Made by a program: the position numbers and the translations under genes
Notes under the pieces: model-generated
The model's input: only the letters and a program-made list of their open reading frames with translations
The model's database searches: none
Told to the model about the DNA's origin: nothing
Shown: positions 20,903-59,632 of the stretch, piece after piece
How positions within the stretch are numbered: the stretch's first letter is position 1
Layout of the letters: every line of letters starts with the position of its first letter
NCBI GenBank assembly: GCA_033551855.1
Contig: JAWSUI010000005.1
Location: 31,026 to 95,025, forward strand
DNA: 64,000 bases
Direction: 5' to 3'
Origin: Deferrisomatales bacterium
GTDB taxonomy: Bacteria; Desulfobacterota; Deferrisomatia; Deferrisomatales; JACRMM01

Positions 20903-22694
20903 TCTTGTCCGTGCGCAGCACGGCCACGAAGGCCTCTTGCGGGATCTCCACCGAACCGAACATGCGCATCTTCTTTTTCCCCTCTTTCTGCTTCTCGAGG
21001 AGCTTGCGCTTGCGCGTGATGTCGCCACCGTAGCACTTGGCGGTGACGTCCTTGCGCACGGCCTGGATGTTCGTGCGGGCGATGATCGACCCGCCGACGG
21101 CGCCCTGGATGGGAATCTTGAACTGGTGGCGAGGGATCATCTCGGCAAGCTTCTCGCAGTAGTGGAGGGCCCGAGGCCGGGCCTTGTCCCGGTGCACCAG
21201 GTAGGAGAGCGCATCGACCCTCTCCCCGTTGACCAGGATGTCCACCTTGACGATGTCGCTGGGGCGGTACTCGAGCTCCTCCCAGTCGTAGGAGCCGTAG
21301 CCCCGGGTCACCGTCTTGAGTCGGTCGTGGAAGTCGAAGAGCACCTCGGCCAGGGGCATCTCGCTCACGACCTCGACCCGGCCCACCGCCAGGTAATTCA
21401 CGGTGAGGCTCGCCGCCCGGTACTCGCGGCACAGGTCCATCACCGTGCCCATGTACTTCTCGGGGCACAGGATGGTGGCCCGGATGAAGGGCTCTTCCAC
21501 AGACTGGATCTTGACCGGGTCGGGCCAGAAGGTGGGGTTGTCCACCTCCACGAGCTTCCCGTCGGTGAGGGTGACCTTGAAGTGCACCGAGGGGGCCGAG
21601 AGGATGAGCGACATCCCGAACTCCCGGGTCAGCCGCTCCTGGACCACGTCCAGGTGCAGGAGGCCGAGGAACCCGCAGCGGAACCCGTAACCCAGCGCGG
21701 CCGACGAGTCCTTCTGGTAGACGAGGGCGGCGTCGTTGAGGGAAAACTTCTCCAGGGCTCGGGTGAGGTCCTCGTACTCGTCGGTCGACACCGGGTACAT
21801 CGAGGAGAAGACCACGGGCTTCGCCGGCCGGTACCCGGGGATCGGCTCCGCCGTGGGGCGGGCCGCGTCGGTGATCGTGTCGCCGATCTCCACGTCGCGG
21901 ATCGTCTTGATGCCCGCGATCACGTACCCCACGGCCCCGGCGGAGAGCTCCTCCGTCTTGACCCTCCCCAGGCGCAGGAGGCCCACCTCCTCGACCTCGT
22001 GCTCCTTCTCCGTGTGCATGAAGCGAATCCGCCGGCCCGCGCGCAAGACCCCATCCCGGACCCGGCACTGGAGGATGGCCCCCCGGTACGGGTCGTAATA
22101 GGCGTCGAAGATCAAAGCCTTGAGGGGGGCCTCGGGATCCCCCGTGGGCGGGGGCAGATGGGCCACCACTCCCTCGAGCACGTCTTCGACGCCGATGCCC
22201 TTCTTGGCCGAGATCGGGATCGCCTCGAAGGGGTCGAGCCCCAGGTCCGCGTCGATCTCCTCCCGGGCCCCTTCCACGTCCGCGGCGGGGAGGTCGATCT
22301 TGTTGATCACGGGCAGGAGCCGCAGGTCGTACTCCAAAGCCAGGTAGAGGTTGGCCACCGTCTGGGCCTCCACGCCCTGGGTGGCGTCCACGATGAGAAG
22401 CGCCCCCTCGCAGGCCATCAGGGAGCGGCGCACCTCGTGGGAAAAATCCACGTGGCCCGGCGTGTCGATGAGGTTCAGCACATAGGGACGGCCGTCCCGG
22501 GCCGTGTAGCGGAGCGTGATGGTATTGCTCTTGATCGTGATGCCCCGCTCCCGCTCGATGTCCATGCTGTCCAGGAGCTGGTCCTGGAACTCCCGGTCCG
22601 ACACCCCCCCGCAGGCCTGGATCAGCCGATCCGCCAGGGTGGACTTGCCGTGGTCGATGTGCGCGATGATGCAGAAGTTTCGGATCTCGTCCAT
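20895..22694 (-). CDS. lepA: Translation elongation factor 4
   Basis: 599 aa; IRNFCIIAHIDHGKSTLADRL, DTPGHVDF, full-length LepA. Confidence 0.97.
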   Translation of the reverse strand: MDEIRNFCIIAHIDHGKSTLADRLIQACGGVSDREFQDQLLDSMDIERERGITIKSNTITLRYTARDGRPYVLNLIDTPGHVDFSHEVRRSLMACEGALLIVDATQGVEAQTVANLYLALEYDLRLLPVINKIDLPAADVEGAREEIDADLGLDPFEAIPISAKKGIGVEDVLEGVVAHLPPPTGDPEAPLKALIFDAYYDPYRGAILQCRVRDGVLRAGRRIRFMHTEKEHEVEEVGLLRLGRVKTEELSAGAVGYVIAGIKTIRDVEIGDTITDAARPTAEPIPGYRPAKPVVFSSMYPVSTDEYEDLTRALEKFSLNDAALVYQKDSSAALGYGFRCGFLGLLHLDVVQERLTREFGMSLILSAPSVHFKVTLTDGKLVEVDNPTFWPDPVKIQSVEEPFIRATILCPEKYMGTVMDLCREYRAASLTVNYLAVGRVEVVSEMPLAEVLFDFHDRLKTVTRGYGSYDWEELEYRPSDIVKVDILVNGERVDALSYLVHRDKARPRALHYCEKLAEMIPRHQFKIPIQGAVGGSIIARTNIQAVRKDVTAKCYGGDITRKRKLLEKQKEGKKKMRMFGSVEIPQEAFVAVLRTDKSG

Positions 22695-22879: not shown

Positions 22880-24334
22880 TCAGATCAGGAACCGCACGGC
22901 CTCCCGGGCCAGGTCCACGATGCTGCCGGGGATGACGCCCAGGTACAGCACCCCGATGCCCGCCAGGACCGTGGCCAGGGCAGCGGAGGGTCCCCCCCGC
23001 AGCTCTTCCACGACCGGGGTCTCGGGGGCCTCTCGGAAGTACATGACCACGATGACCCGCAGATAGTAGTACACGCTCGCGGCCGAGTTGAGCACCCCCA
23101 GGATCGTGAGCCAGTAGTAGCCCTCGTTCACGGCCGCCTTGAAGATGAGGAACTTTCCGATGAAGCCGGCGGTCGGCGGGATCCCGGCCATGGAGAACAT
23201 GAACACCGTCATCGCCAGGCCGAGAAGGGGAAACTTGAACCCCAGCCCCGAATAGGCCTCGAGCTCGGTGTTCTCCTGGCCGAACTTCCCCACCATGATC
23301 ACGCACGCGAAGGCCCCCACGTTCATGAAGGCGTAGGCCAGGAGGTAGAAGAGCATGCCGGAGCTCGCCTCCGGGGTCCCCACCACGAGCCCGACCAGGA
23401 GGTACCCGGCGTGGGCGATGGAGGAGTAGGCCAGCATGCGCTTGACGTCGGTCTGGGCGATGGCGGCGAGGTTCCCCAGGGTCATCGTGAGCAGCGCGAG
23501 CACCCACAGGGCCCCGGACCACTCGCCGTGCAGCGCGGGGAACGCCGTGACGAAGACGCGCACGAAGGCGCTGAACGCCGCCGCCTTCACCCCGGTCGCC
23601 ATGAACGCCGTCACGGCGGTGGGGGCTCCCTGGTACACGTCGGGGGTCCAGGCGTGGAACGGCACCGCCGCCACCTTGAAGGCGAACCCCACCGTGATCA
23701 GGCCGACGCCGATGAGCGCCATCGGGGAGGCCGTGAGCCCCCGGACCTCGGCGAAGTGCCGCATCACGTCGTGGAGCTGCGTGCTCCCGCAGGCCCCGTA
23801 GATGAGCGCGATGCCGTACAGGAGGAACGCCGAGGCGAACGCCCCCAGGAGGAAGTACTTGTAGCTCGCCTCCGCTCCCCGCTCCGTCCGCAGGAAGCCG
23901 GCCAGGGCGTAGATGGCCAGGCTCATGGTCTCGAGGCCCAGGAAGATCACCAGCAGGTGCGTGCCCCCGGCCATGAGCATCATGCCCACCATGGCCAGCA
24001 GCACCAGCGCGTAGTATTCCCCGTGGTCCATCCGCTCGGAGCGCAGGTAGCCCTCGGAGAGGAGCAGGGTCAGCGCCCCCACCACGTAGATCACGAAGTA
24101 GAAAAACGCGGCGAAGCCGTCCGCGGCCAGCATCCGGGAGAACCCCAGGCGCTGCGGGCCGAAGAGGGCGGGGGTCAGCAGGGCCGCCACGACGATGCCG
24201 GCGATGCCCAGGTACGCCAGGTACCCCTTGCGGCCGGCCGGGTTGAAGGCCTCGGCCAGGAGGACCAGCAGGGCGGTCGCCGCGATCGCCATGTGGGGGG
24301 CCAAGGCCCCGAGGTCAGCCATCTGGAAGTCCAT
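22880..24334 (-). CDS. nuoN: NADH-quinone oxidoreductase subunit N
   Basis: 484 aa, about 14 TM, antiporter-like subunit, last gene of the operon. Confidence 0.93.
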   Translation of the reverse strand: MDFQMADLGALAPHMAIAATALLVLLAEAFNPAGRKGYLAYLGIAGIVVAALLTPALFGPQRLGFSRMLAADGFAAFFYFVIYVVGALTLLLSEGYLRSERMDHGEYYALVLLAMVGMMLMAGGTHLLVIFLGLETMSLAIYALAGFLRTERGAEASYKYFLLGAFASAFLLYGIALIYGACGSTQLHDVMRHFAEVRGLTASPMALIGVGLITVGFAFKVAAVPFHAWTPDVYQGAPTAVTAFMATGVKAAAFSAFVRVFVTAFPALHGEWSGALWVLALLTMTLGNLAAIAQTDVKRMLAYSSIAHAGYLLVGLVVGTPEASSGMLFYLLAYAFMNVGAFACVIMVGKFGQENTELEAYSGLGFKFPLLGLAMTVFMFSMAGIPPTAGFIGKFLIFKAAVNEGYYWLTILGVLNSAASVYYYLRVIVVMYFREAPETPVVEELRGGPSAALATVLAGIGVLYLGVIPGSIVDLAREAVRFLI

Positions 24335-24352
24335 CGAGTTGCCTCCCTCTCC

Positions 24353-25918
24353 TCACTCGGCCGCGGAACGGCTCGGTTCCCGCCCAAGGATCAGGGCCAC
24401 GGCGTCCTGGTGTCCCAGCTCCGCACACGCCACCCTCCGGGACTCCACCCGCTCCAACCACTGCTGCACCGAAGCGTCCATGGGACGCAGGAACACTGCG
24501 GGGTAGATCCCCATCCAGAAGGCCAGCACGACCATGGGGACGAGGTAGGCCCACTCCAGGCCCGTCAGGTCGGCCAGCCCCTTGTTCTTCTCGTTGTCCA
24601 GGGGGCCGAAGAAGACCCGCAACACCATCCACAGCATGTACCCCGCCGCCAGGATCACCCCGGACGCGGCAAAAACCGCAGCGGTCTTGGAGGCCAGGAA
24701 CGCGCCGACCATGATCAGGAACTCGCCCACGAACCCGTTCAGGCCCGGCAGCCCGATGGAGCTCATGGTGATCACCACGAAGATCGCCGCGTACCACGGC
24801 ATCTGCTTGGCCAGGCCGCCGAACTGGGCGATCTCCCTGGTGTGGCGGCGCTCGTAGATGACCCCGACCAGGAGGAACAGGGCGCCCGTCGACACCCCGT
24901 GGGCCAGGCTCTGGAAGATGCCTCCCTCGACGCCCTGGACGTTGAAGGCGAAGAGCCCCAGCATGACGAACCCGAGGTGCGACACCGAGCTGTAGGCCAC
25001 CAGCTTCTTCACGTCGCTCTGGACCATGGCCACCAGGGCACCGTAGATGATGCCGATCACCGCGAGCACCATCATGAAGGGCGCGAAGGCCTCGGCGGCG
25101 TTCGGGAAGAGCGGGATCGCGAAGCGCAGGAAGCCGTAGGTGCCCATCTTCAGGAGCACTCCCGCCAGGATCACGGACCCGGCCGTGGGCGCCTGGGTGT
25201 GGGCGTCCGGGAGCCAGGTGTGGAGCGGGAACATCGGCACCTTGATGGCGAAGGCCAGGGCGAAGGCGGCGAAGAGCCAGAACTGCACGTTGGGGGCGAT
25301 GGGCAGGTCGTAGAGCCGCAGCACGTCGAAGGTCGCCCCGTAGCCCGCCTTGATGTTCAGGAAGTAGAGCGTCAGGATCGCGACCAGCATGAGCAGCGAC
25401 CCCACCATGGTGTAGAGGAAGAACTTGATCGCCGCGTAGATCCGCTCCGCCCCTCCCCAGACTCCGATGAGGAAGTACATGGGGATGAGCATCGCCTCCC
25501 AGAAGATGTAGAAGAGGAAGAGATCAAGGGCCACGAGCGCCCCGAGCATCCCGGTCTCCAGTAGGAGGAAGAAGAACATGTACTCCCGGACCTGCTTCTC
25601 GATGCTCCAGGACGACAGGATGCAGATCACCGAGAGGAAGGTGGTCAGGAGCACCAGGAAGAGGCTGATCCCGTCGATCCCGAGAAGGTACTGAATCCCC
25701 AGGCTCTCAATCCACGGGGCGCGCTCCACGAACTGCATGCCCCCCTCCCCGTTGTCGAAGCCGAACCACAGGGGCAGGCTCAGGGCGAAGGTCAGCAGCG
25801 TCACGAAGAGGGTCCAGCCGCGGAGCAGCCCCAGGCCCCCCCGGGGGAGGAAGAGCAGGACCACCGCCCCCGCCAACGGCAGGAAGGTGATCAGGGTCAG
25901 GATCGGAAGCTCACCCAT
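24353..25918 (-). CDS. nuoM: NADH-quinone oxidoreductase subunit M
   Basis: 521 aa; ...HTWLPDAHTQAPTAGSVILAG... is typical of NuoM. Confidence 0.94.
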   Translation of the reverse strand: MGELPILTLITFLPLAGAVVLLFLPRGGLGLLRGWTLFVTLLTFALSLPLWFGFDNGEGGMQFVERAPWIESLGIQYLLGIDGISLFLVLLTTFLSVICILSSWSIEKQVREYMFFFLLLETGMLGALVALDLFLFYIFWEAMLIPMYFLIGVWGGAERIYAAIKFFLYTMVGSLLMLVAILTLYFLNIKAGYGATFDVLRLYDLPIAPNVQFWLFAAFALAFAIKVPMFPLHTWLPDAHTQAPTAGSVILAGVLLKMGTYGFLRFAIPLFPNAAEAFAPFMMVLAVIGIIYGALVAMVQSDVKKLVAYSSVSHLGFVMLGLFAFNVQGVEGGIFQSLAHGVSTGALFLLVGVIYERRHTREIAQFGGLAKQMPWYAAIFVVITMSSIGLPGLNGFVGEFLIMVGAFLASKTAAVFAASGVILAAGYMLWMVLRVFFGPLDNEKNKGLADLTGLEWAYLVPMVVLAFWMGIYPAVFLRPMDASVQQWLERVESRRVACAELGHQDAVALILGREPSRSAAE

Positions 25919-25937
25919 CGGTCTCTCTCCTCCTACC

Positions 25938-27911
25938 CTAGAACGCAGCCATGAGCGCGTAGTAGGCGACCACCACCACGGCCCCGAAGAGGATCGTCAG
26001 CGCGTAGCCCTGCACCCGGCCCGTCTGGAGCTGCCGTAGCCCGCCGCCCACCGTGCGCACCAGGTACCCGGTGCCGTTGACGATCCCGTCGATCACGACC
26101 ACGTCCCAGAACGCCCACAGGAAGGTCGCCAGGGACAGGCAGGTGTCCACGAACACCGCCTGGTAGATCTCGTCCACGTAGTACTTGTTGTTCAGAAGCT
26201 CGTACGCGCCGCGGCACTTCTCGGCGATCGCCTTCGGCAGGTCGGGCTTCAGGAGGTAGAGGAAGTAGGCGCCCAGGATGCCCAGGAGCGCGTACGCCAC
26301 GCTCAGGAACATGAGCACGTACTCGACGGGATCGTGGTGGGCGGCCCCGTGCTCCCCCGCCGCGCCGGCCATTTCCGCCGCCGCGTGGACGCCGGCCTGG
26401 GACCCGACGTCGAGGACGGGCGCGAGCCAGTGGTGGAAGTGGTTTGCTCCCCCCAGGGCCGCGGGGATTCCGATCCAACCGCCCACCACCGAGAGCAGGG
26501 CCAGGATCCACAGAGGCCCGGTCATGCTCACGGGCGACTCGTGAACGTGGACCTCGTGATGGTCGAAGCGCTCCTTGCCGAAGAAGGTCATGAACACGAG
26601 GCGGAACATGTAGAACGCCGTGATGCCGGCCGCTATGAACCCCAGGAACCACTGAAACTGGAATCCGTTGGACCACGCCATCCACAGGATCTCGTCCTTC
26701 GAGAAGAACCCGGCCAGGGGCGGAAGCCCCGCGATGGCGATGGTGGCCACGAGGAAGGTGAGATAGGTGTGGGGCATGTGGGCCTTCAGGCCCCCCATCT
26801 TGCGCATGTCCTGCTCGCCGCCCATCCCGTGGATCACCGACCCGGACCCGAGGAACAGGCAGGCCTTGAAGAAGGCGTGGGTCATGAGGTGGAAGATGCC
26901 CGCCACGTACGCCCCCACCCCCATGGCCGTGAACATGTAGCCGAGCTGGCTCACGGTGGAGTAGGCGAGCACCTTCTTGATGTCGTTCTGGGTCAGGGCG
27001 ATGGTCCCGGCGAAGAGGGCCGTGAGGGCCCCGATGGTCGCCACCACCGCCATGGTGGTCGGGGCCAGGGAGTAGAGCACCGCCGCCCGGCCGATCATGT
27101 AGACGCCCGCGGTGACCATGGTGGCCGCGTGGATCAGGGCCGATACGGGGGTCGGGCCCGCCATCGCGTCGGGGAGCCAGACGTAGAGGGGAATCTGGGC
27201 GCTCTTGCCCGTGGCTCCGACGAAGAGCAGGAGGGTGATCGCGGTCACCGCGGCCCCTCCGACCGCAAGGGTCGCCGGCGCCTGGGCCATGACGGTGCGG
27301 AAGTCCAGGGTGCCGAAGTACACGAAGATCAGGAACATGCCCAGCAGGAAGCCGAAGTCGCCGATCCGGTTGACGATGAAGGCCTTCATGCCGGCCGCCG
27401 CCTTGGCGCGGTCCTCGAACCAGAATCCTATGAGGAGGTAGGAGCACAGCCCCACCCCTTCCCAACCCACGAACATCACCAGGAAGTTGCTCCCCAGCAC
27501 CAGGGTGAGCATCGCGAAGCTGAAGAGGTTGAGGTACGCAAAGTAGCGGGAGTAGCCCGGGTCGTGGTGCATGTACCCCACCGAGTACACGTGGATCAGG
27601 AACCCCACGCCCGTGACCACCAGGATCATCACGGCGCTCAGGGGATCCAGCAGGTACGCGAGATCGACCTTCAGCGAGCCGGCGGCGATCCACTCGAACA
27701 GCGTCTGGGTCAGGACCCGCTCGGTCTCCGGGAGGGCCCGCAGGGTGAAGAACCCCCACACCGAGACCAGGAACGAGAGAAACACGCTCCCGCACGCGAT
27801 CCAGTGGACGAGGCTCTTGGGCAGCCGCTTCCCGATGAGGCCGTTGATCAGGGCCCCCACCATCGGGAAGAGCGGGATGAGCCAGATGTACTCCCAGGTG
27901 TGTTCGTGCAT
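25938..27911 (-). CDS. nuoL: NADH-quinone oxidoreductase subunit L
   Basis: 657 aa; ...PLYVWLPDAMAGPTPVSALIHAATMVTAG..., with lateral-helix C-terminus. Confidence 0.95.
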   Translation of the reverse strand: MHEHTWEYIWLIPLFPMVGALINGLIGKRLPKSLVHWIACGSVFLSFLVSVWGFFTLRALPETERVLTQTLFEWIAAGSLKVDLAYLLDPLSAVMILVVTGVGFLIHVYSVGYMHHDPGYSRYFAYLNLFSFAMLTLVLGSNFLVMFVGWEGVGLCSYLLIGFWFEDRAKAAAGMKAFIVNRIGDFGFLLGMFLIFVYFGTLDFRTVMAQAPATLAVGGAAVTAITLLLFVGATGKSAQIPLYVWLPDAMAGPTPVSALIHAATMVTAGVYMIGRAAVLYSLAPTTMAVVATIGALTALFAGTIALTQNDIKKVLAYSTVSQLGYMFTAMGVGAYVAGIFHLMTHAFFKACLFLGSGSVIHGMGGEQDMRKMGGLKAHMPHTYLTFLVATIAIAGLPPLAGFFSKDEILWMAWSNGFQFQWFLGFIAAGITAFYMFRLVFMTFFGKERFDHHEVHVHESPVSMTGPLWILALLSVVGGWIGIPAALGGANHFHHWLAPVLDVGSQAGVHAAAEMAGAAGEHGAAHHDPVEYVLMFLSVAYALLGILGAYFLYLLKPDLPKAIAEKCRGAYELLNNKYYVDEIYQAVFVDTCLSLATFLWAFWDVVVIDGIVNGTGYLVRTVGGGLRQLQTGRVQGYALTILFGAVVVVAYYALMAAF

Positions 27912-27933
27912 CGCAGCGTCCTCTTTCGGGCGC

Positions 27934-28236
27934 TCAGCCCTTGAGCAGATCGAGCTCGTCCGCGTACACCGTGTGCCGGATCCGGTACAGCGACACGATG
28001 ATAGCCAACCCCACCGCGGCCTCGGCCGCCGCCACCGTCATGACGAAGAGCACGTAGATGAGCCCCTCGGCGCTGTTGAGGTGGTCGGCGATGGCCACGA
28101 AGGCCAGGTTTACGCCGTTGAGCATGAGCTCGATGCACATGAGAAGGACGATGACGTTGCGCCGGAGCAGGACGCCCACGGCCCCCAGGGTAAAGAGCAC
28201 TGCCGAGAGGGTCATCGAGTACTCGAGGGGAATCAT
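27934..28236 (-). CDS. nuoK: NADH-quinone oxidoreductase subunit K
   Basis: 100 aa, 3 TM, MCIELMLNGVNL motif. Confidence 0.93.
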   Translation of the reverse strand: MIPLEYSMTLSAVLFTLGAVGVLLRRNVIVLLMCIELMLNGVNLAFVAIADHLNSAEGLIYVLFVMTVAAAEAAVGLAIIVSLYRIRHTVYADELDLLKG

Positions 28237-28287
28237 CTCATCCTCCGTTGCCCGTCGGGCCTGAACACAACGTCCGCCCCGCGGGGA

Positions 28288-28794
28288 TCACAGGCGCTTC
28301 TTCGCGAGGACAACCGCGCCGACGAGCCCCACCAGGAGCAGGATGCCGGCGGCCTCGAAGGGCAGCAGGTACGTGGTGAAGAGCTCGTCGGCGATGAGCT
28401 CCACGCTGCCCACCTGCTCCCGGGCCTCGAGGGTCATCCCCCCGGTCACCCCCGTGAGCCGGGAGGCCAGGGGCACCACGAGGAGCACGAAGAGCAGGCC
28501 CGCCCAGACCAAGCCCACCAGCTTCGCCCCCGAGGGCCGCTTCCCGGCGCCTTCCTCCTTCCGGATGTCCAGGAGCATGATCACGAACACGATGAGCATC
28601 ATCACGGCCCCGGCGTACACCATGAGCTGGATGGCGAAGATGAACTCGGCGTGGTGGAGCAGGTAGATCACCGCCAGGCTCACCATGGTCCCCACCAGGG
28701 ACATGGCCGAGTGGATGGGGTTGCGGCAGGTCAGCACCCCCAGCGCGCCCAGCACCGCCAGACCCGCGAAGACGAAAAAGAGCGCTACGGCCAT
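28288..28794 (-). CDS. nuoJ: NADH-quinone oxidoreductase subunit J
   Basis: Last 168 aa of ORF 28288..29064 from MAVALFFVFAGLAVLGALGVLTCRNPIHSAMSLV. Confidence 0.9.
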   Translation of the reverse strand: MAVALFFVFAGLAVLGALGVLTCRNPIHSAMSLVGTMVSLAVIYLLHHAEFIFAIQLMVYAGAVMMLIVFVIMLLDIRKEEGAGKRPSGAKLVGLVWAGLLFVLLVVPLASRLTGVTGGMTLEAREQVGSVELIADELFTTYLLPFEAAGILLLVGLVGAVVLAKKRL

Positions 28795-28817
28795 AGAGAA
28801 CCTCCTCCCCTTTCGCC

Positions 28818-29219
28818 TCAGTTCCGGGCCAGCACGTCCCGGGTCATGTGGAACTCCTCCCGGGTGTACCCGCAGAACTCGTATTCGCGCGTGAGCTCGA
28901 TGGCGTCCTTGGGGCACGCCTCCGCGCAGTACCCGCAGAAGATGCAGCGCGACACCTCCACCACGAACCGCTCCGGAAACCGGCGGCCGTCGGGGGTCTC
29001 CTTCGCCTCCACGGTGATCACGTCGGCCGGGCACACCGCCTCGCACAGGCCGCAGGCCACGCACTTGAGGCGTCCGTTCTCGCTCTTGAGCCGGTGCAGC
29101 CCTCGCCAGCGCTCTGCGGGCTCCCGCTTCTCCTCGGGATACTGGATGGTGACGGGCTTGGTGAAGAACCGCCCCAGGGTGAACGCCAGTCCCTTGAGGA
29201 GGGGGGTGATGACCGCCAT
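28818..29219 (-). CDS. nuoI: NADH-quinone oxidoreductase subunit I (2x[4Fe-4S])
   Basis: 133 aa; CVACGLCEAVCP and CIFCGYCAEACP. Confidence 0.95.
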   Translation of the reverse strand: MAVITPLLKGLAFTLGRFFTKPVTIQYPEEKREPAERWRGLHRLKSENGRLKCVACGLCEAVCPADVITVEAKETPDGRRFPERFVVEVSRCIFCGYCAEACPKDAIELTREYEFCGYTREEFHMTRDVLARN

Positions 29220-29253
29220 CTCGTCTCTCCTGTGCCGGCCCGCGCCGCGCCGG

Positions 29254-30261
29254 TTACGCGAACACCGTGTAGTACACGCCCACCACCACCACGTTGGCGA
29301 TGGACACCGGGATCAGCACCTTCCACCCGAAGTTCATCACCTGGTCGTACCGGAATCGGGGGAAGGTGCCCCTCTCCCAGATGAAGAAGAAGACCAGCAC
29401 GAACACCTTGAGGAGGAACCACACGACCTTCGGGACGAAGGGCACCTCGATGCCGAAGGGCAGGTGCCACCCGCCCAGGAAGAGGCAGGTGATCAGTGCG
29501 GCCAGCGAGATCGCGTGGGCATACTCGGCCATGAAGAACATGGCGAACTTCATGCTCGAGTACTCGATGTTGAAGCCGCAGGCGAGCTCGCTCTCGGCTT
29601 CCGGCATGTCGAAGGGCGTGCGGTTGATCTCGGCCAGCCCGCAGATCAGGTACAGGACGAAGGGAACCCAGAGGATGGGGTTGAAGATGTTCCACATGTG
29701 GCTCTGGCCGTCCACGATCTGCACCAGGGAGAGGCTGCCGCTGACCATGATGACGCTGATCAGCGTGAATCCCAGGGCGAGCTCGTAACTGACCATCTGG
29801 GCCGCCGCCCGCAGGGAGCCCATCAGGCCGTACCGGTTGTTCGAGCCCCACCCCCCCAGGACGACGCCGAACTCGCCGAGGCTCGCCAACCCGAGAATGA
29901 AGATCAGCGCCACGTTGATGTCCGCCACCCTCATCGTGATTTCCCGCCCGAAGAGGGTGATCGACTCCCCGAAGGGGATCACCGAGACGATCAGGATGGC
30001 CGGGATGATGGAGAGGGCCGGCGCCAGGATGTACGCCACCCGGTCCGCGTTCGCCGGGACGATGTCCTCCTTGAAGAACCCCTTGATGCCGTCGGCGATG
30101 GGCTGGAGCAGGCCGAAGGGGCCCACGCGGTTGGGCCCGCGGCGCACCTGGATGCGGCCCAGCACCCGGCGCTCCAGCCAGGTGGTGTAGGCCACCATCA
30201 GCATGAGAACGCCGAAGACCACCACCACCTTGATCACGCTCTCGATCAGGAAGGCAACCAT
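29254..30261 (-). CDS. nuoH: NADH-quinone oxidoreductase subunit H
   Basis: 335 aa; ...TWLERRVLGRIQVRRGPNRVGPFGLLQPIADG... Confidence 0.95.
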   Translation of the reverse strand: MVAFLIESVIKVVVVFGVLMLMVAYTTWLERRVLGRIQVRRGPNRVGPFGLLQPIADGIKGFFKEDIVPANADRVAYILAPALSIIPAILIVSVIPFGESITLFGREITMRVADINVALIFILGLASLGEFGVVLGGWGSNNRYGLMGSLRAAAQMVSYELALGFTLISVIMVSGSLSLVQIVDGQSHMWNIFNPILWVPFVLYLICGLAEINRTPFDMPEAESELACGFNIEYSSMKFAMFFMAEYAHAISLAALITCLFLGGWHLPFGIEVPFVPKVVWFLLKVFVLVFFFIWERGTFPRFRYDQVMNFGWKVLIPVSIANVVVVGVYYTVFA

Positions 30262-30283
30262 GGGCTCCTCGCTTTGCTCGGCC

Positions 30284-30311
30284 GCGACGCGTGACGGGTG
30301 ACGCGTGACGC
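30284..30311. repeat. Tandem heptads GCGACGC GTGACGG GTGACGC GTGACGC in the spacer between the FdhA-like gene and nuoH
   Basis: Read directly; the mRNA (minus) sense is GCGUCAC repeats. Confidence 0.65.
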
Positions 30312-30389
30312 GCTACCCCCTAGCCGCTGCCCGTCGCGCGTTGCTGTCGGCCGACGGCGTTTGGCCGTTGACCCTTCACTCTTCAACGT

Positions 30390-33062
30390 TCACACCTTCT
30401 CCACCCGCACCGCGCAGACCTTGTACTCGGGGATCTTGGCCGTGGGGCAGACCACCGGGTTGGTCAGCACGTTCACCGGGGACTCGCTGTAGTGGAAGCT
30501 CAGGAACACGGTGCCGGGCGCGGTGCGGTCCACCACCTGTACCTTGGTCCGGATCTCGCCCCGGCGGGAGGACACCTGGACGGTGTCGCCGGTCCGGAGT
30601 CCCAGCTTCTCCGCGTCGGCCGGGTGCACCTCCATGAAGCCCTCGGGAAAGCAGTCGTTGATGCGCCCGCACCGCCGGGTCATGGTGCCCGAGTGGTAGT
30701 GGGCGTGCTCCCGGCCGGTGGTGAGCAGGAGCGGGTACTCGGCGTCCGCCTTCTCGTCCGCCCCGCGGAACGCGACCGGCGTGAAGAGCCCCTGGCCCCG
30801 GGTGAACTTGCCCACGTGGAGGATCGGCGTGCCCGGGTGATCCTTGCTCGGGCAGGGCCACTGGAGCCCCTCGCGCTCGAGCCGGGCGTAGTCCATGCCG
30901 GCGTAGCTGGGCGTCAGGCGGGCGATCTCGTCGAAGACCTCCGAGGGCCCTTCGTAGCTCATCTTGAGGCCCATGCGGCCGGCCAGGTCCTGAAAGATCT
31001 CCCAGTCCGGCCGGGACTCGCCCCGGGGCGCCACGGCCGCCCGCACCCGCTGGACTCTGCGCTCGGTGTTGGCGAAGGTGCCGTCCTTCTCGGCGAAGGA
31101 GCTGGCCGGGAGCACCACGTGGGCCTTGGCGGCGGTCTCGGTGAGGAAGATGTCCTGGACCACCAGGAGCTCGAGCTTCTCGAGCGCCTCTCCGACGTGG
31201 CTCAAGTCCGGGTCGGTGATCATGGGGTTCTCGCCCATGACGTAGAGGGCCTTGACCGTACCGTCCAGCGCGCCGTGGGTGGCCTCGGTCACGGTGAGCC
31301 CGGGCTTGCGGGGGACCTTGCGGCCCCAGGCCTCTTCGAACTTGGCCGCGGCCGCGTCGTCGTCCACCCGCTGGTACCCGGTGAGGACGTTGGGGAGGCC
31401 CCCCATGTCGCAGGCGCCCTGCACGTTGTTCTGGCCCCGCAAGGGGTTCAGCCCCCCGCCCTCCACGCCGACGTTGCCGCACAGCATCGCGAGGTTGGCC
31501 AGGGCCTTGACGGCATCGGTGCCCTGGGAGTGCTGGGTGACGCCCATGCAGTAGAGGATCGATGCCGGCTTCGCGGCGGCGTAGAGGCGCGCGGCCTCCC
31601 GGAGGGACTCCGCGGGCACCCCGATGATCAGCTCCACCTTCTCCGGCGTGAAGTCGGCCAAGGACGCGGCGAGTTCCTCGAAGCCCTCGCACCGCTCGGC
31701 CACGTAGGCCGCGTCGTGGAGCCCCTCCGCGAGGATCACGTGCATCATCGCGTTGAGGACGGGGATGTTGTGGCCGGGTTCGATCTGCAGGAAGACGTTC
31801 GCGTAGTCCGTGAGCGGGATCCGGCGGGGATCGACCACGACCAGCTTGGCCCCCTTCCGGGTGATGGCTCGTTTGAGCACATCGCCGATGATCGGATGGT
31901 TCTCGGTGGTGTTGGAGCCGATGACCAGGAACGCCGCGGCCTTCTCGAAGTCGGCGATGGAGTTGGTCATCGCGCCGGAGCCGAAGCTGGTGGCCAGACC
32001 GGCCACGGTGGCGCTGTGTCAGAGTCGTGCGCAGTGATCGACGTTGTTGGTGCCGATCACCGCGCGGAAGAACTTCTGGAAGAGGTAGTTGTCCTCGTTC
32101 GTGCACCGGGCGCTCGCGAACCCTGCGACCGCGTCGGGGCCGCTCTCGTCCTTGATCTGCTGGAGCTTCGACGCGACAAAACCGAGGGCCTCGTCCCAGG
32201 TGGCCTCCGCGAGCTGGCCGTTCTTCCGCACCAGGGGCACGGTGAGCCGGTCGGGGTGGTTGACGAACTCCCAGCCGAACCGGCCCTTCACGCACAGGCT
32301 CCCCCGGTTCGGGACCGCGTCGAAGTCGGTGGTGGTGACCCGCAGGACCTGGTCGTTCTTCGCGTTGAGCTCGAGCTGACACCCGACGCCGCAGTACCCG
32401 CACGTGGTGCGGACGCGGCTGGCCTGCCAGGTGCGTGCCTTGCGGGGCATCACCGAGTCGGTCAGCGCCCCCACCGGGCAGACCGAGAGGCACTCGCCGC
32501 AGGAGATGCACTCCACCCCCGGCACCGGGCCGATGTAGGAGTGGAACCCGTTGTCGACGATCTGGATGCACCCGATGCCCTTGATCTCCTTGCAGGCGTG
32601 GACGCACCGGGCGCACAGCACGCATCGGTCGGGCCACTGCTGGATGAATGGGGAGACGTACCGGGGCACGGGGCGCTCGAAGGTCTCGGCCGCAAAGTCC
32701 TGCTTCGTGACGCCGAATTCCCAGGTCAGGTCCTGGAGGTCGCACTCGCCCCCCTTGTCGCAGACCGGGCAGTCCAGGGGGTGGCGCACGAGGAGGAGCT
32801 TGAGGACGTCGCGCCGCATCTCCCGGAGCTCCTCCGACTCGGTGCGCACGACGAGGCCCTCTCCGGCCGGGGTGTCGCAGGCGGTGATGGGCTTCCGATA
32901 CCCCTCCACCTCCACCACGCACATGCGGCAGGACCCGATGGGGGCGAGCTTCTTGAGCCAGCACAGGGTCGGGATCCGAATCCCCACCGACTGGGCGGCC
33001 TCGAGAATCGTCGTCCCCTTGGGGACGCTCACCGCTTTGCCGTCGATCGTCAGGCTGATCAT
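30390..33062 (-). CDS. Selenocysteine-containing FdhA/NuoG-like molybdopterin oxidoreductase subunit (ORF-track pieces 32019..33098 and 30390..32006 joined across an in-frame TGA)
   Basis: Both pieces are in the same frame, separated only by TGA at 32019-32021: ...[30 protein letters not shown]... N-terminus has 2Fe-2S plus HPLDCPVCDKGGECDLQD (NuoG/FdsA-like). Then CVLCARCVHAC, CISCGECLSVCP, TTCGYCGVGCQL (MopB 4Fe-4S) and a C-terminal molybdopterin dinucleotide-binding domain. Start at MISLTIDGK (GAGGGG 8 nt upstream) or 12 codons earlier at 33098. Confidence 0.9.
31990..32021 (-). promoter_or_regulatory. UGA(Sec) codon plus bacterial SECIS hairpin
   Basis: mRNA reads UGA CAC AGC GCC ACC GUGGCC-GGUCU-GGCCAC. 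A 6-bp stem carries apical loop GGUCU at nt 22-26 from the U of UGA, the same loop sequence and spacing as E. coli fdhF. Confidence 0.8.
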
Positions 33063-33165
33063 GCAGAACCCCTCGCGGAGATGCAGGCTGTCGGCCATGG
33101 ACTGTTTGCCCTCAGCCCTTCCCGTGTCACGTATGACCCAACGCTTGGCATACTCGCTGTGAACT

Positions 33166-33204
33166 TCCTATAGGACCTATAGGTCCCATAGGTCCTATAG
33201 GACC
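33166..33204. repeat. AT-richer 9-nt periodic palindrome TCCTATAGGACCTAT-aggtccc-ATAGGTCCTATAGGA
   Basis: 15-bp perfect stem with four TATAGG(A/T)CC-type units, in the 131-nt spacer between the two input-module genes. Confidence 0.75.
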
Positions 33205-33229
33205 CCCAAGGGGAAAGCTCCGTCATCCC

Positions 33230-35188
33230 TCACGCCCCCGTCGCCACTGCCAGCAGCCGGTAACACCGCAGGCACCGGCTGGCGTCGGCGATGGCCTCCT
33301 CGTGGGTGAACCCGATCTCGGCCTCCCGGAAGTCCGTCACCCGCTCCTCGACCGGCGCGTGGTGGATGTGGGCGGGCTCGGTGGTCGGGGGCACCCCCAC
33401 GTCTTCCTTGGGGTCGTAGGGCTTGAGCTTCTCCACGTACTGGTTCATGACCCACTCCTCCAGGGCCTCGGTGCGCCCCTCCCGGAGGAACCGGTCGATC
33501 TGGAAGGCCGCTTCCTTGCCCCCGGCCAGTCCGGCAATCAGGGTGAGGGGGCCGGAGACGCAGTCGCCGGCGGAAAAGACCCCCACTCCGTTGTGGACCG
33601 CGGCGAGTTTGTTGAGCCCCTCGACCTGGATCTGCTTCCACTTGTCCGCCTTCACCGGCCCGTCCGCGAACAGGAAGGAGAGGTCGATGGCCTGGCCGAT
33701 GGCGGGGATGACCGCATCCACCGGGATCACGAGCTCGCTCCCCTTGACCTCTACGGGCCGCCGCCGTCCCGAGGCGTCGGGCTCCCCGAGTTCCATCCGG
33801 ACGAGCTCCACCCCCGTGACCTTCCCCTTCTCGTCCAGCACCAGCCGGGTGGGGTTGTGCAGCACCAGGAACTCCACGTTCTCGGCCTTGGCGTCGGCGA
33901 TCTCCACCTTGTCGGCGGGCATCTCCGCCTCGCTGCGCCGGTACACCAGCTTCACGTTCTCGTAACCCAGGCGCAGGGCCGTGCGCACGCAGTCGATGGC
34001 CACGTTGCCGCCGCCCACCACGGCCACCGTCTTTCCCACGAACACCGGTGTCCCCAGGGCGACGTCCCGGAGGAAGTCGGCGCCCCGCATGAAGCCTTCC
34101 TTCGCTTCCCCCTCGCCGGGCACGCCCATGCCGGTGCCGAGGCGAGCCCCCACCCCCAGGAACACCGCCCGGTACTCCCCGCCCAGCAGGTCCGCAAAAG
34201 GCACGTCCGTGCCCACATCGGTGCCGTAGCGCATCGTCACCCCCATCTCCCCGATCAGGTCCGCCTCTCGGCGGAGGATCGCGCGGGGGAGGCGGTAGTC
34301 CGGGATGCCCACGGCCGCCATGCCGCCGGGCTCCGGGAGGGCCTCGAACACCGTGCAGTCGTACCCCATCTGGGCCAGGTAGAAGGCGCAGGAGAGCCCC
34401 GCGGGCCCGGCGCCCACCACCGCCACCTTCTCCTTGTCGATGACCGGCTTGGGCAGCCGGGGGGGCCGCTTGCGCTCCAGCTCGTAATCCGCCACGAAGC
34501 GCTTGAGGAACTTGATCTGGACCGGCCCATCCACGTTCTGACGGCGGCAGTTGAACTCGCAAGGCCGGACGCAGACCCTCCCCACCGTGCCCGGCAGGCA
34601 GTTGTCCTGGCGGATCACGTCCAGACTCTCCAGGAACTTCCCGTTCTTGACGTGCTCCACGTAGGTGGGGATGTCGAGGTGGGCCGGGCAGGCGCTCTTA
34701 CACGGCGCCGTCACCTTGAGTCGGTAGGTGCCCCGGGGGATCTCCGACTCCCCCCCCGCCGCCGCATCGAGCTCGGCGCGGAAGTGGGTGACGAGGTCCA
34801 GGAACGCCTTCCCGCAGGACTGCCCCAGATCGCACAGCGCCTGCTCGCGGAGGCGGCCCGCCAGCCGCGCCACGGTCTCCACGTCGCCGGCCTGCCCCCG
34901 GCCCAGGCAGATGCGGTCGAGGCAGTCGTGGATGACCTTGCTCCCCACCCGGCAGGGGACGCACTGGCCGCAGGAGTTTCTCACCAGCCCCTCGGCGTAG
35001 GCCCGGCCCAGATCGACGGGGTTCACCCCGTCGTCCCACAGGGCGATCCCGTCCCATCCCATGATTCCGAGGACCGGGGTGCCGGAGGACAAGGACTTGG
35101 GCAGGGCTACGTCGTCGGGGCCCTGGGCCGTGGCCTGCCGGCTGTCGAGGAGCTTGCCGCCCCAGCTCGAAAAGATCCGATCGGACAT
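33230..35188 (-). CDS. NuoF-C-terminal Fe-S domain fused to a GltD-like NAD(P)H flavoprotein (SfrB-like)
   Basis: Last 652 aa of ORF 33230..36076 from MSDRIFSSWGG (GAGGAGAG upstream). NSCGQCVPCRVG...ALCDLGQSCG matches the NuoF N3-cluster region, but no FMN/NADH domain is present. CKSACPAHLDIP / CVRPCEFNC Fe-S motifs follow. Two dinucleotide folds: VAVVGAGPAGLSCAFYLA and VAVVGGGNVAIDCVR. Confidence 0.88.
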   Translation of the reverse strand: MSDRIFSSWGGKLLDSRQATAQGPDDVALPKSLSSGTPVLGIMGWDGIALWDDGVNPVDLGRAYAEGLVRNSCGQCVPCRVGSKVIHDCLDRICLGRGQAGDVETVARLAGRLREQALCDLGQSCGKAFLDLVTHFRAELDAAAGGESEIPRGTYRLKVTAPCKSACPAHLDIPTYVEHVKNGKFLESLDVIRQDNCLPGTVGRVCVRPCEFNCRRQNVDGPVQIKFLKRFVADYELERKRPPRLPKPVIDKEKVAVVGAGPAGLSCAFYLAQMGYDCTVFEALPEPGGMAAVGIPDYRLPRAILRREADLIGEMGVTMRYGTDVGTDVPFADLLGGEYRAVFLGVGARLGTGMGVPGEGEAKEGFMRGADFLRDVALGTPVFVGKTVAVVGGGNVAIDCVRTALRLGYENVKLVYRRSEAEMPADKVEIADAKAENVEFLVLHNPTRLVLDEKGKVTGVELVRMELGEPDASGRRRPVEVKGSELVIPVDAVIPAIGQAIDLSFLFADGPVKADKWKQIQVEGLNKLAAVHNGVGVFSAGDCVSGPLTLIAGLAGGKEAAFQIDRFLREGRTEALEEWVMNQYVEKLKPYDPKEDVGVPPTTEPAHIHHAPVEERVTDFREAEIGFTHEEAIADASRCLRCYRLLAVATGA

Positions 35189-35205
35189 GGACGTCTCTCC
35201 TCGCT

Positions 35206-36384
35206 TCAGCGGTCGATCTCGCCGAGGACGATGTCGAGGGAACCGATCACCGCGACGACGTCCGCGACCATCCGGCCCAGGATCATCGGCTCCAGGGCCT
35301 GGAGATTCACGAAGCAGGGAGGCCTGACCCGGAACCGCCAGGGCTTCTCCGTGCCGTCGGAGACCAGGTAGTAGCCCAGTTCCCCCTTGCTCGCCTCCAC
35401 GCTCATGTACACGTCCCCGACCGGCGCCTTGTAGCCGTCGCTCATGAGCTTGAAGTGGCGGATGAGGGCCTCGATGTGCTCGTAGACGTCCTGCTTGGGG
35501 GGCGGGGTGAAGCGAGGGTCGTCGAGCATCACCGGACCCTCGGGCATCCGGTCCAGGGCCTGCTCGGCGATCCGCAGAGATTGGCGCATCTCCACCAGGC
35601 GCACCAGATAGCGCTCGTACACGTCGCCCACCGTCCCGGTGGGGATCTCGAAATCGTAGGTCTCGTAGTCGCAATAGGGCTGGGCCTTGCGCAGGTCCCA
35701 CTGGATACCGGCTGCGCGCAGCACGGGGCCGGTCAGGGCGAACTGGACGCATTCCTCGGCGCTGATGATCCCGATGCCCTCGGTGCGCCCTCTCCAGATC
35801 TTGTTCTGGGTCAGGAGGCGCTCGTACTCGTCGATCCGTGAGGGGAACTCCTGGATGAAGGCCCGGGCCTTCTCGAAGAACACCGGCGGCACGTCCTCCG
35901 GCAAGCCCCCCACCCGGATGTAGCTCGGGGTGAGGCGCGCGCCGTGGACGTCCTCCAGGAGGTCCATGACCTTCTCGCGGTCCCGGAAGGTGTAGAACAG
36001 CACCGTCATGGCACCGATGTCGAGGGCATGGCTGGCCAGCCACAGCAGGTGGCTGGCGATCCGCTGGAGCTCGCACAGGCAGACCCGAAGGACCGTCGCC
36101 CGGGCCGGGATCTGATCCTCGATGCCCAGGAGCTTCTCCACGGCCAGGGTGTACCCCAGGTTGTTGAGCAGGGCGCCCACGTAGTCCATCCGGTCCGTGA
36201 GCGTCAGGGCCTGGTGGTAGGTCTTGGTTTCCGCCAGCTTCTCGAGTCCGCGGTGCAGGTGGCCCAGGTGCGGCGTCACCCCCACGACGGTCTCGCCGTC
36301 GAGCTCCAGCACGAGCCGGAGCACCCCGTGGGTGGCCGGGTGCTGGGGGCCCATATTGACGACCATGTTCCGGGTCTCGCCCAT
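35206..36384 (-). CDS. nuoD: NADH-quinone oxidoreductase subunit D
   Basis: 392 aa; MVVNMGPQHPATHGVLRLVLELDGE... Confidence 0.96.
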   Translation of the reverse strand: MGETRNMVVNMGPQHPATHGVLRLVLELDGETVVGVTPHLGHLHRGLEKLAETKTYHQALTLTDRMDYVGALLNNLGYTLAVEKLLGIEDQIPARATVLRVCLCELQRIASHLLWLASHALDIGAMTVLFYTFRDREKVMDLLEDVHGARLTPSYIRVGGLPEDVPPVFFEKARAFIQEFPSRIDEYERLLTQNKIWRGRTEGIGIISAEECVQFALTGPVLRAAGIQWDLRKAQPYCDYETYDFEIPTGTVGDVYERYLVRLVEMRQSLRIAEQALDRMPEGPVMLDDPRFTPPPKQDVYEHIEALIRHFKLMSDGYKAPVGDVYMSVEASKGELGYYLVSDGTEKPWRFRVRPPCFVNLQALEPMILGRMVADVVAVIGSLDIVLGEIDR

Positions 36385-36433
36385 GATGCCCTCCGTCCGG
36401 GTGCGCCCTGGCGGGACGCGGCCGGGTCAGCTC

Positions 36434-36913
36434 TCAGCGGTAGTGCACCTTCTGGGGAATGCCATGGAGCGGAAAATCCTTGCGCAGGGGGTGCCCCACG
36501 TACCCGTCCCACAGCAGGATGCGCCGCAGGTCCGAGTGCCCTTCGAACACGATGCCGAAGAGGTCGTACACCTCGCGCTCCAGCCAGTTGGCAGCCTTCC
36601 AGACCCCCTCCACCGTGCGGATCGTCGCATTCTGGGCCACGGCGGCCTTCAGGCGGAGCCGGCGGTTGTGGGGGAAGGAGTACAGGTTGTAGACGACCTC
36701 GAATCGCGGCTCGCCGGGCAGGCGGTCCACCGCGGTGAGGTCGGCGAGCATGTCGAACCGCAGCGCCTCATGGTCCCGGCAGCAGGCGCACACGTCCACG
36801 ATGCGCTCCGGGTCCACCGCCACGCTGAGCTGGCCGCGGAAGGCGGTGTCGCCCAAGATGGCGTCGCCGCAGCTACCTTTCAGGATCTCGACGATCGGGG
36901 ATTGGTCGCTCAT
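36434..36913 (-). CDS. nuoC: NADH-quinone oxidoreductase subunit C
   Basis: 159 aa; ...ANWLEREVYDLFGIVFEGHSDLRRILL... Confidence 0.93.
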   Translation of the reverse strand: MSDQSPIVEILKGSCGDAILGDTAFRGQLSVAVDPERIVDVCACCRDHEALRFDMLADLTAVDRLPGEPRFEVVYNLYSFPHNRRLRLKAAVAQNATIRTVEGVWKAANWLEREVYDLFGIVFEGHSDLRRILLWDGYVGHPLRKDFPLHGIPQKVHYR

Positions 36914-36929
36914 TTCGGCCTCACGCTGG

Positions 36930-36957
36930 TTGCGTGTTGCGTGTTGCGTGTTGGGCG
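36930..36957. repeat. Tandem heptads TTGCGTG x3 plus variant TTGGGCG in the nuoB-nuoC spacer
   Basis: Read directly; the mRNA sense is CACGCAA x3. Confidence 0.7.
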
Positions 36958-37006
36958 CCGGAAAAGCTTTCTCCCACGCGCAACGTACCGCCCGCCGCGA
37001 GCAGCT

Positions 37007-37507
37007 CTACGCGATCAGCCGCCCCTCGGTGTCCGGACGGTCCGAGAACTTCTCGCTGCCGATCTTGTCCTGGAGCTTGATGATCGCGGCCAGGAGCTGC
37101 TCGGGGCGGGGAGGACAGCCGGGCACGTACACGTCCACCGGCAGGAACTGGTCCACGCCCTGGACGGTGTTGTACGTGTTGAAGATGCCGCCGGAGCACG
37201 CACACGACCCGTAGGCGATCACCCACTTGGGCTCCGGCATCTGGCGATAGATGCGCTCCACCATGCCCGCCATCTTCTTGGTCACGGTACCGGCCACGAT
37301 CATCAGGTCCGACTGCCGGGGAGAGGGGCGGAAGACCTCGGCCCCGAACCGGGCGATGTCGTAGTTGGAGGCCGACGCCGCCATCATCTCCAGCGCACAG
37401 CAGGCCAGGCCGAAGGTCGCGGGCCAGATGGAGTTCTTCCGCGCCCAGCCCACCACCTTCTCGAGCCGCGTGACCAGGACGGGGGGCAGCTTGCTCTCTA
37501 CTCCCAT
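37007..37507 (-). CDS. nuoB: NADH-quinone oxidoreductase subunit B
   Basis: Last 166 aa of ORF 37007..37900 from MGVESKLPP... [11 protein letters not shown] and [10 protein letters not shown]...PGCPPRPE (N2 cluster ligands). Start overlaps the nuoA end by 10 nt. Confidence 0.94.
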
Positions 37508-37854
37508 TGCAGGACTCCTTTCCTCCAGGTGTAGGCGAATCCCACCACGAGGACGAAGAGGAAGACCATCATGCCCACGAACGCCTCGGGCCCCAGATGA
37601 CGGAAGCGGACGGCCCAGGGGTAGAGGAAGGCCACCTCCAGATCGAAGACCAGGAACTCCATGGCGACGAGGTAGTACTTGATGTCGAAGGCCCGGCGCC
37701 CGCCCGGCTCCACGACCATCCCGCACTCGTAGGTGGCGAGCTTGTCGGCGTTGGGGCGCCGGGGGCCGAGGAAGGTGGAGATCAGAACCACACCCAGGCC
37801 GAACGCCGTGGCCAGGAGGAACAGGATGAGGATCGGCACGTAGTTCTGAAGCAT
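37498..37854 (-). CDS. nuoA: NADH-quinone oxidoreductase subunit A
   Basis: 118 aa, 3 TM, ...[32 protein letters not shown]... Confidence 0.93.
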
Positions 37855-52739: not shown

Positions 52740-52905
52740 ACCGCCGCCGACAAACAGGACGGCCTCCGGTAGACTATGGGCGGCCGCAACCCCGCTCGCA
52801 GGAACCCGGCCGGGGTCATGGCGCCCAGTGGGGGGCGAACGCCCCACGGCCGGCCCGCGGCGCAGCATCCGGCGGCCCGGCGCCCCGTCCACCAGGAGAC
52901 CGACC

Positions 52906-54535: not shown

Positions 54536-59632
<5,097 letters not shown>

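Follow-up and report, generated by a model that had tools for sequence, protein, structure and literature searches.

Formate dehydrogenases in which an in-frame UGA, accompanied by a selenocysteine insertion sequence (SECIS) in the mRNA, specifies selenocysteine (Sec) are the commonest kind of bacterial selenoprotein, and an fdhA gene of this type is ordinary in itself. The SECIS of Escherichia coli fdhF has a GGUC tetraloop closed by an A21-U26 pair and carries a bulged U17. Reviews of the types of respiratory complex I describe 11-, 12-, and 14-subunit forms only (PMC3144371, PMC4758237), and according to PMC11238625 and PMC5736913 it is unknown what donates electrons to the 11-subunit form, a question that PMC3144371 also treats as open. 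That the complex I subunit NuoG descends from formate dehydrogenase has to date been concluded from degenerate remnants only, and mycobacterial NuoG/complex I, when tested for formate activity, was negative (PMC10068793). Here we analyze a stretch of 64,000 nucleotides from a Deferrisomatales bacterium (contig JAWSUI010000005.1, positions 31,026 to 95,025; hereafter the window), in which an fdhA gene lying among nuo genes is interrupted by TGA at 32019-32021. We read this TGA as a selenocysteine codon served by an fdhA-type SECIS, and on the sequence comparisons set out below we give this reading a probability of about 0.93.

Structure of the interrupted gene

The minus strand between 30390 and 33062 holds one fdhA gene of 890 codons, Sec348 included, that is broken only by the TGA. 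The features that bear on the reading are as follows.

30390-33062, minus strand: complete fdhA gene, 890 codons, delimited from Pfam domains, TIGR01591, the FdsA alignment, and ortholog starts
32019-32021, minus strand: in-frame UGA, the predicted Sec codon, aligned with Cys386 of R. capsulatus FdsA and followed directly by the conserved catalytic His
31990-32006, minus strand: apical hairpin of the predicted SECIS, with 5' arm GUGGCC (32006-32001), loop GGUCU (32000-31996), and 3' arm GGCCAC (31995-31990), from comparative covariation and folding
31966-32024, minus strand: sub-threshold match to Rfam SECIS_3 (RF01989), 38.1 bits

A first-pass annotation of the window, made from the letters and a list of open reading frames (ORFs), had noticed that ORFs 32019..33098 and 30390..32006 share a frame and are separated only by TGA and four sense codons. 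This holds on the minus strand, where the first ORF terminates at the TGA (T = 32021) and the second continues in that frame after four codons, CAC AGC GCC ACC (H S A T), with nothing else between them. The true start of the gene is probably ATG 33062 (M13 of the ORF list entry) rather than the listed ATG 33098, which would lie 12 codons too far upstream, because the orthologs begin with MI(N/S)LTIDGK behind a GAGGGG-like ribosome-binding site. Both halves of the gene have the composition of coding DNA, with a G+C fraction at third codon positions of 0.93-0.96. The ratio of nonsynonymous to synonymous substitution rates, estimated against five TGA orthologs and one Cys ortholog, is 0.15-0.33 upstream of the TGA and 0.09-0.40 downstream, and no indels occur over 300 codons of this comparison.

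The homologous codon was followed through a set of 84 loci, gathered by a search at the protein level and by scanning a single genome for each species, in which 78 homologous sites were scored. It is TGA at 68 of the 78, drawn from many phyla, and otherwise a cysteine codon (TGC at 8, TGT at 2). These counts bear on the simplest alternative, that the TGA is a real stop and that the locus is either a pseudogene or a pair of genes, one for a 347-aa Fe-S protein like NuoG and one for a 538-aa molybdopterin protein begun at GTG 32006. TGA is indeed the usual stop codon in this genome, and ORF callers and the Joint Genome Institute (JGI) annotate exactly two such products in a close relative. We nevertheless consider a real stop highly improbable, as it would forfeit the active-site Cys/Sec position, leave unexplained the recurrence of TGA at this exact codon in 68 sites together with a covarying hairpin, and sit poorly with purifying selection that is equal on both sides with no shift of frame. 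The four codons that lead from the TGA to the GTG are conserved as well, with the His invariant across 66 sequences. Separate initiation at GTG 32006 is not conserved, since this Val codon, listed as the start of the second ORF, is the non-start codon GTT, GTA, or GTC in many orthologs.

A second alternative is a sequencing or assembly error, or else a genetic code in which TGA means Trp or Gly, and three public homologs are in fact translated with W or G at this point. The evidence effectively refutes both forms. Sequencing error is excluded because 19 independent public N-terminal fragments (347-359 aa) cluster with the truncated N-terminal ORF product of the window, because the contig of a close relative (L004) shows the same TGA split, and because TGA recurs in the 68 homologous sites; the truncated product is also matched exactly in an assembly from an independent sequencing run. 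A code with TGA as a sense codon is excluded because TGA terminates 32 of the 44 window genes and a scan of the 64 kb found no further in-frame TGA junction. One candidate junction, at 24355, was rejected, being the stop of nuoM followed by nuoN in the same frame.

Identity of the encoded protein

With C substituted for U, the joined translation matches the Pfam families Fer2_4, NADH-G_4Fe-4S_3, Fer4_Nqo3, Molybdop_Fe4S4, Molybdopterin, and Molydop_binding. It scores 875.1 bits on the NCBIfam Fdh-alpha equivalog TIGR01591 (cut-off 666.25) and 440 bits on the NuoG model TIGR01973, under its cut-off of 470. Among solved structures the nearest is that of R. capsulatus FdsA (6TG9), aligned over residues 2-887 with an E value of 1e-245. 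In this alignment the UGA falls on the Mo-ligand Cys386, and the catalytic apparatus is intact, as the Sec/Cys-His pair and the Arg of the LRGQNNVQG motif are conserved with respect to FdsA. The active site reads ARL-U-HS, and the proximal 4Fe-4S motif and both domains that bind the molybdenum or tungsten bis-pyranopterin guanine dinucleotide cofactor are present. By homology, then, the joined ORFs encode the alpha subunit of a formate dehydrogenase of the FdhA/FdsA/SfrA type that uses this cofactor. The first-pass annotation had recognized the Cys/Sec-His context of such alpha subunits at the junction and had proposed that the ORF track split a single selenoprotein gene in two. The first point is upheld by the TIGR01591 score, the end-to-end alignment with FdsA, and the match at Cys386, His, and Arg, and an alignment with Cys- and Sec-type homologs, which it had called for, places the UGA at the catalytic Cys position. 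The second agrees with TGA at 68/78 sites, the covarying hairpin, and a joined protein that passes TIGR01591.

It could still be that Sec is inserted and that formate dehydrogenation is not the main function of the enzyme, which would serve instead as an SfrAB-like NADPH:acceptor oxidoreductase or as a NuoG-like electron-transfer subunit of complex I. The pairing of fdhA with a flavoprotein gene mirrors the architecture described for SfrAB of Geobacter, whose annotation is "NADPH oxidoreductase" alpha/beta (PMC7894505), fdhA occupies the nuoG slot of its operon (both described below), and 440 bits on TIGR01973 is just short of 470. We regard this as unlikely, since the TIGR01591 cut-off is exceeded by about 200 bits, and the Sec/His/Arg residues and both molybdopterin domains, which are lost in true NuoG (PMC3144371), are intact here; the retention of a costly Sec likewise argues for catalysis at the metal site. 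Nor is the NuoG score special, as stand-alone FdhAs reach 372-457 bits on the same model, and the notion that the nuo-embedded FdhA is unusually NuoG-like was rejected on these values.

The hairpin downstream of the UGA

Counted from the U of the UGA, the arms of the hairpin occupy nt 16-21 and 27-32 and form a 6-bp stem around a loop at nt 22-26. U17 is paired with A31 within this continuous stem, such that there is no bulged U17, and most homologs share the geometry. The first-pass annotation had drawn the same GUGGCC-GGUCU-GGCCAC element and likened its distance from the UGA to that in fdhF, and the likeness is confirmed by the E. coli sequence itself, TGACACGGCCCATCGGTTGCAGGTCTGC (also given as TGACACGGCCCATCGGTTGCAGGTCTGCACC), which is found in 5419 of 5426 complete E. 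coli genomes and carries GGTCT at nt 22-26. The hairpin is the minimum free energy structure in both 45-nt and 141-nt contexts, with a pair probability of 0.74-0.78.

Several observations weigh against a SECIS at this place. In DNA of 69% G+C the 65-nt fold is no more stable than its shuffles (z = -0.82), and over the same length a competing fold beats the hairpin by 0.2 kcal/mol. The Rfam SECIS_3 model, in a search of 301 nt, scores 38.1 bits (E 2.3e-7) against a gathering threshold of 63, so that the check suggested by the first-pass annotation found its match at the right site and fell short of the family threshold. A conserved VAGL peptide partly constrains the loop, as Gly-Leu requires GGN CUN, and conservation of the loop is to that extent not fully independent of the protein. 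Finally, none of selA, selB, selD, and tRNA-Sec is found in the 64-kb window. The GTPase gene at 20895-22694 is lepA, and no tRNA-Sec was found in 16 related loci.

Because the 65-nt z-score is non-significant and a competing structure exists in high-G+C DNA, fold stability gave way to covariation as the criterion. At the gathering threshold, Rfam finds a tRNA alone in the whole window and no SECIS family, RF01989 included, in 12 homologous loci, and because 0/12 reach threshold the SECIS_3 family must be narrower than this class of fdhA SECIS, for which its thresholds are uninformative. A covariance model was built from 53 distant orthologs (at most about 58% protein identity), with the window and all Deferrisomatales loci left out. 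Run on the 64-kb window, it gives a single strong match, at 31974-32024 on the minus strand (56.8 bits, E 1.7e-12), and the runner-up reaches 11.5 bits. Glycine in the loop is encoded by GGT, a codon used for only 4.2% of the Gly residues of the window genes, and this rare choice points to selection on the RNA.

The comparison among homologs gives decisive support for the predicted hairpin. All six stem pairs (nt 16-21/27-32) can form in 63 of the 68 TGA sites, and 54 of the 68 have the GGUCU loop. Pair 18:30 covaries through G-C, U-A, C-G, and A-U (GUG/GCC, GUA/GCU, GUU/GCA, GUC/GCG) and pair 21:27 through C-G and A-U (GCC/CUG vs GCA/CUU), in each case at synonymous third positions. Across 66 distinct sequences the paired cells amount to 97.2%, compared with 80.4% in shuffles, and two-sided stem changes number 59 where 23.8 are expected; in neither measure does any of 500 shuffles reach the observed value. 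When the partner columns are slid, pairing falls to 21-60%, and RNAalifold predicts the same helix without being supplied with it. Conservation of the hairpin in orthologs that keep the UGA had been set beforehand as a refuting test for the first-pass annotation; it was found there, with compensatory changes, and was found to be mostly absent in Cys orthologs.

The 10 Cys-type sites retain a mean of 4.0 of the six stem pairs. In the closest of them (L001 11042-11090, also L002 and L003), which has 76% identity and the same operon, the codon is TGC, the loop is GGGCU, and the stem is broken, and this looks like a switch from Sec to Cys followed by decay of the SECIS. The Moorella mulderi locus (L078) has TGC together with a perfect hairpin, where the switch may be more recent. 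Four further loci (L066 8182, L068 11135, L070 11135, and L081 11135, the last labeled as a Methanosarcinales metagenome-assembled genome (MAG)) keep the TGA followed by GTTGCAGGCCTCGTGAAGGCC, which cannot form the standard hairpin, and these may use a SECIS of different geometry.

Proposed decoding of the UGA and public annotation

The sequence and its comparison show, 3' of the UGA, an mRNA hairpin with GGUCU exposed at nt 22-26. By analogy with E. coli fdhF and Moorella fdhA, SelB·GTP·Sec-tRNA(Sec) would bind the exposed G23/U24 and supply Sec to a ribosome that has paused at this codon; the Sec so encoded would become the metal ligand of the active site. The full protein of 890 aa would then oxidize formate or reduce CO2, with electrons passing through its NuoG-like Fe-S chain to a GltD/NuoF-like flavoprotein (NAD(P)+), to the complex I core encoded in the same operon, or to both.

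Callers that are unaware of Sec either split such a gene or pick the wrong genetic code, and it is mainly for annotation that the selenoprotein call matters, since in Deferrisomatales and related anaerobes an entire formate dehydrogenase goes unseen through mis-annotation. The first-pass annotation had anticipated the splitting, and public callers do return products of 347 and 538 aa, or W/G at the TGA. JGI divides an ortholog into genes of exactly these two lengths, naming one a NuoG-type protein and the other "formate dehydrogenase alpha subunit." In three public calls (P0003, P0005, and P0007) the caller had settled on genetic code 25 or 4 and placed Gly or Trp at the homologous TGA; these contigs would simply carry a selenoprotein gene. 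For the window itself, the NCBI proteins (MDW7709532-548) leave only two accession numbers between NuoH (MDW7709539) and NuoD (MDW7709542), a spacing which suggests that NCBI annotates fdhA as a single coding sequence.

The gene lies in a nuo operon

The genes around fdhA run on the minus strand from 37854 to 22880 in the order nuoABCD, a gene for a 652-aa flavoprotein, fdhA, and nuoHIJKLMN, a context that the first-pass annotation had missed.

35206-37854, minus strand, upstream in the same operon: nuoA (37498-37854), nuoB (37007-37507), nuoC (36434-36913), and nuoD (35206-36384)
33230-35188, minus strand: gene for the 652-aa SfrB/FdhB-like flavoprotein, in the nuoE/F slot, with the NuoF C-terminal 4Fe-4S domain (PF10589), Fer4_20 (PF14691), and Pyr_redox_2 (PF07992)
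27934-30261, minus strand, downstream in the same operon: nuoH (29254-30261), nuoI (28818-29219), nuoJ (28288-28794), and nuoK (27934-28236)
22880-27911, minus strand, downstream in the same operon: nuoL (25938-27911), nuoM (24353-25918), and nuoN (22880-24334)

The position of fdhA between nuoD and nuoH is the usual slot of NuoG, the NADH-input subunit, and the operon (22880-37854) contains no nuoE, nuoF, or ordinary nuoG. In the flavoprotein the NuoF-type domain is followed by a GltD-like 2x[4Fe-4S]/FAD/NAD(P)H module, and among solved structures the protein best matches the GltD-like portions of 9BOV/8OH5 and NfnA; it is presumed to be the NAD(P)-linked partner of FdhA. A look-up of this SfrB-like protein gave no match. 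Only one sigma-70-like promoter match is found, upstream of nuoA (37957-37928), and between the flavoprotein gene (sfrB), fdhA, and nuoH there are no terminators beyond chance expectation.

Spacers of the operon contain short tandem repeats, namely palindromic 9-nt CCTATAGGA units (x4.2) at 33167-33204, the 7-nt unit GACGCGT (x3.9) at 30286-30312, and the 7-nt unit GTTGCGT (x3.6) at 36929-36953. Other short tandem repeats occupy the sfrB-fdhA spacer in L001, L004, L006, and L017.

Spread of the linkage and a possible role in complex I

The order nuoABCD-sfrB-fdhA-nuoH is found in all Deferrisomatales loci with enough flanking sequence, the Cys variant included, and in four more distant loci (L013, L014, L015, and L021) with FdhA identities of 55-58%. 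In L065 the order is fdhA-nuoABCD-sfrB-nuoHI, and in a Syntrophobacterales/Desulfobacterales group fdhA immediately follows nuoN. A neighbor-joining tree places the embedded and the appended FdhAs in one clade that spans several orders. The appended form occurs in the isolate Desulfoferrobacter suflitae DRH4 (L050 10001-12655), in which a Sec-encoding fdhA follows nuoN and is itself followed by a two-component system, with no flavoprotein gene within 10 kb of fdhA; the cultured Desulforhabdus sp. TSK has the appended form as well. As in L050, four further loci (L025, L033, L036, and L038) have a Sec-encoding fdhA after the nuoN of an operon of the 11-subunit type, with no flavoprotein gene nearby. 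The loci of this group have a gap of roughly 3.4 kb in the matches between nuoL and nuoM, which suggests an extra antiporter-like subunit.

The persistence of the linkage suggests that FdhA passes electrons into the 11-subunit core of complex I. Since the nuoEFG slot is replaced exactly and the linkage is kept across several orders, FdhA can be viewed as an electron-input module, and we tentatively put forward, as a possibility short of a favored conclusion, that a Sec-containing FdhA, with or without the flavoprotein, replaces NuoEFG to form a formate (and/or NADPH):menaquinone oxidoreductase that pumps protons or, in the reverse direction, a CO2 reductase driven by the proton-motive force. 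A specialized adaptation to complex I finds a point against it in the embedded FdhA, which is of ordinary length and no more NuoG-like than the stand-alone FdhAs, and for this reason a soluble NADP-type FdhAB, tied to the nuo genes by no more than a shared transcript, is also possible.

The operon context, with a predicted catalytically intact Sec-containing formate dehydrogenase in the NuoG slot, matters more than the selenoprotein call. If FdhA does serve complex I, it would be a present-day instance of the formate dehydrogenase state that is taken to be the origin of NuoG, and the cultured relatives with the appended form, DRH4 and TSK, make the question of the complex I donor experimentally testable. 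The literature searched, with incomplete coverage that makes it weak evidence of novelty, gives no description of an FDH/GltD-like pair inside a nuo operon.

Other features of the window and related loci

Outside the operon, an archaeal-type phosphoenolpyruvate carboxylase is encoded on the plus strand at 52828-54471 of this bacterial MAG (TIGR02751, 277 bits vs a cut-off of 146). Two very large hybrid sensor kinases, of 1698 aa and 895 aa, are encoded on the minus strand at 54536-59632 and 61283-63970, the larger having CHASE, several PAS, HisKA/HATPase, two receiver domains, and Hpt, and the two genes flank a tRNA-Leu(UAA) gene at 61057-61142 on the plus strand. In a Tissierella MAG (L031), a riboswitch for the molybdenum/tungsten cofactor (Moco) lies at 13100-13224, about 2.4 kb downstream of the Sec-encoding fdhA.

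Comparison with known systems

The window gene shares with E. coli fdhF a UGA at the catalytic position with His as the next residue, the GGUCU at nt 22-26, and a homologous catalytic domain (1AA6, E 1e-177). It differs in the details of the hairpin, as the window loop is of 5 nt closed by C21-G27 and U17 is paired with A31, and the GUUGCC-GGUCU-GGCAAC hairpin of many fdhA genes resembles that of the window more than E. coli fdhF does. The proteins differ as well: FdhF has no NuoG-like Fe-S domains at its N terminus, and its docking partner is the Hyc hydrogenase and not a Nuo complex. Closer in architecture is the NADP-dependent FdhAB of Moorella thermoacetica (Moth_2312-2314; PMC5736913), which combines a NuoG-like N terminus and a Sec active site with an Fe-S/flavin beta partner, and the window has its hairpin type, GUNGCN-GGUCU-NGCNAC, in common with the Firmicutes homologs. 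Several close homologs are named "formate dehydrogenase (NADP+) alpha subunit" by JGI. In contrast, identity to the Moorella protein is about 50%, and FdhAB is a soluble enzyme of the Wood-Ljungdahl pathway, whereas the genes described here lie between nuoD and nuoH.

FdsA of the NAD+-dependent FdsABG(D) of R. capsulatus and Cupriavidus (6TG9/6TGA) has all of the cluster motifs and the His and Arg found here, but carries Cys rather than Sec, and its partners are the NuoE/NuoF homologs FdsG and FdsB, the latter with flavin mononucleotide (FMN), rather than a GltD-like protein with flavin adenine dinucleotide. SfrAB of Geobacter sulfurreducens, likened here by its described architecture and already pointed to by the first-pass annotation in its mention of SfrA homologs, combines an FdhA-like alpha subunit with a beta subunit of NuoF-C-terminal/GltD-like type (PMC7894505), although it is a stand-alone cytoplasmic pair of debated function.

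A precedent for a cytoplasmic formate dehydrogenase that feeds a complex-I-like membrane module is the formate hydrogenlyase of E. coli, in which, unlike the arrangement proposed here, protons are reduced on a NiFe subunit. ForCE of Bacillus subtilis (PMC8808070) is a menaquinone-linked formate dehydrogenase with a NuoG-like N terminus, and is set apart by the Cys-Gln motif of ForC and by a DUF1641 partner. Neither of these two systems is encoded within a nuo operon. The remaining comparison is with the NuoEFG N-module of the 14-subunit complex I, from which the window operon differs in having neither NuoE nor the FMN domain of NuoF, and whose NuoG no longer has the catalytic residues or the Mo cofactor (PMC3144371); the two are alike in the operon slot between nuoD and nuoH, in homologous N-terminal Fe-S domains with the N1b, N4, and N5 motifs, and in the C-terminal 4Fe-4S domain of NuoF, which is present in the flavoprotein gene of the window.

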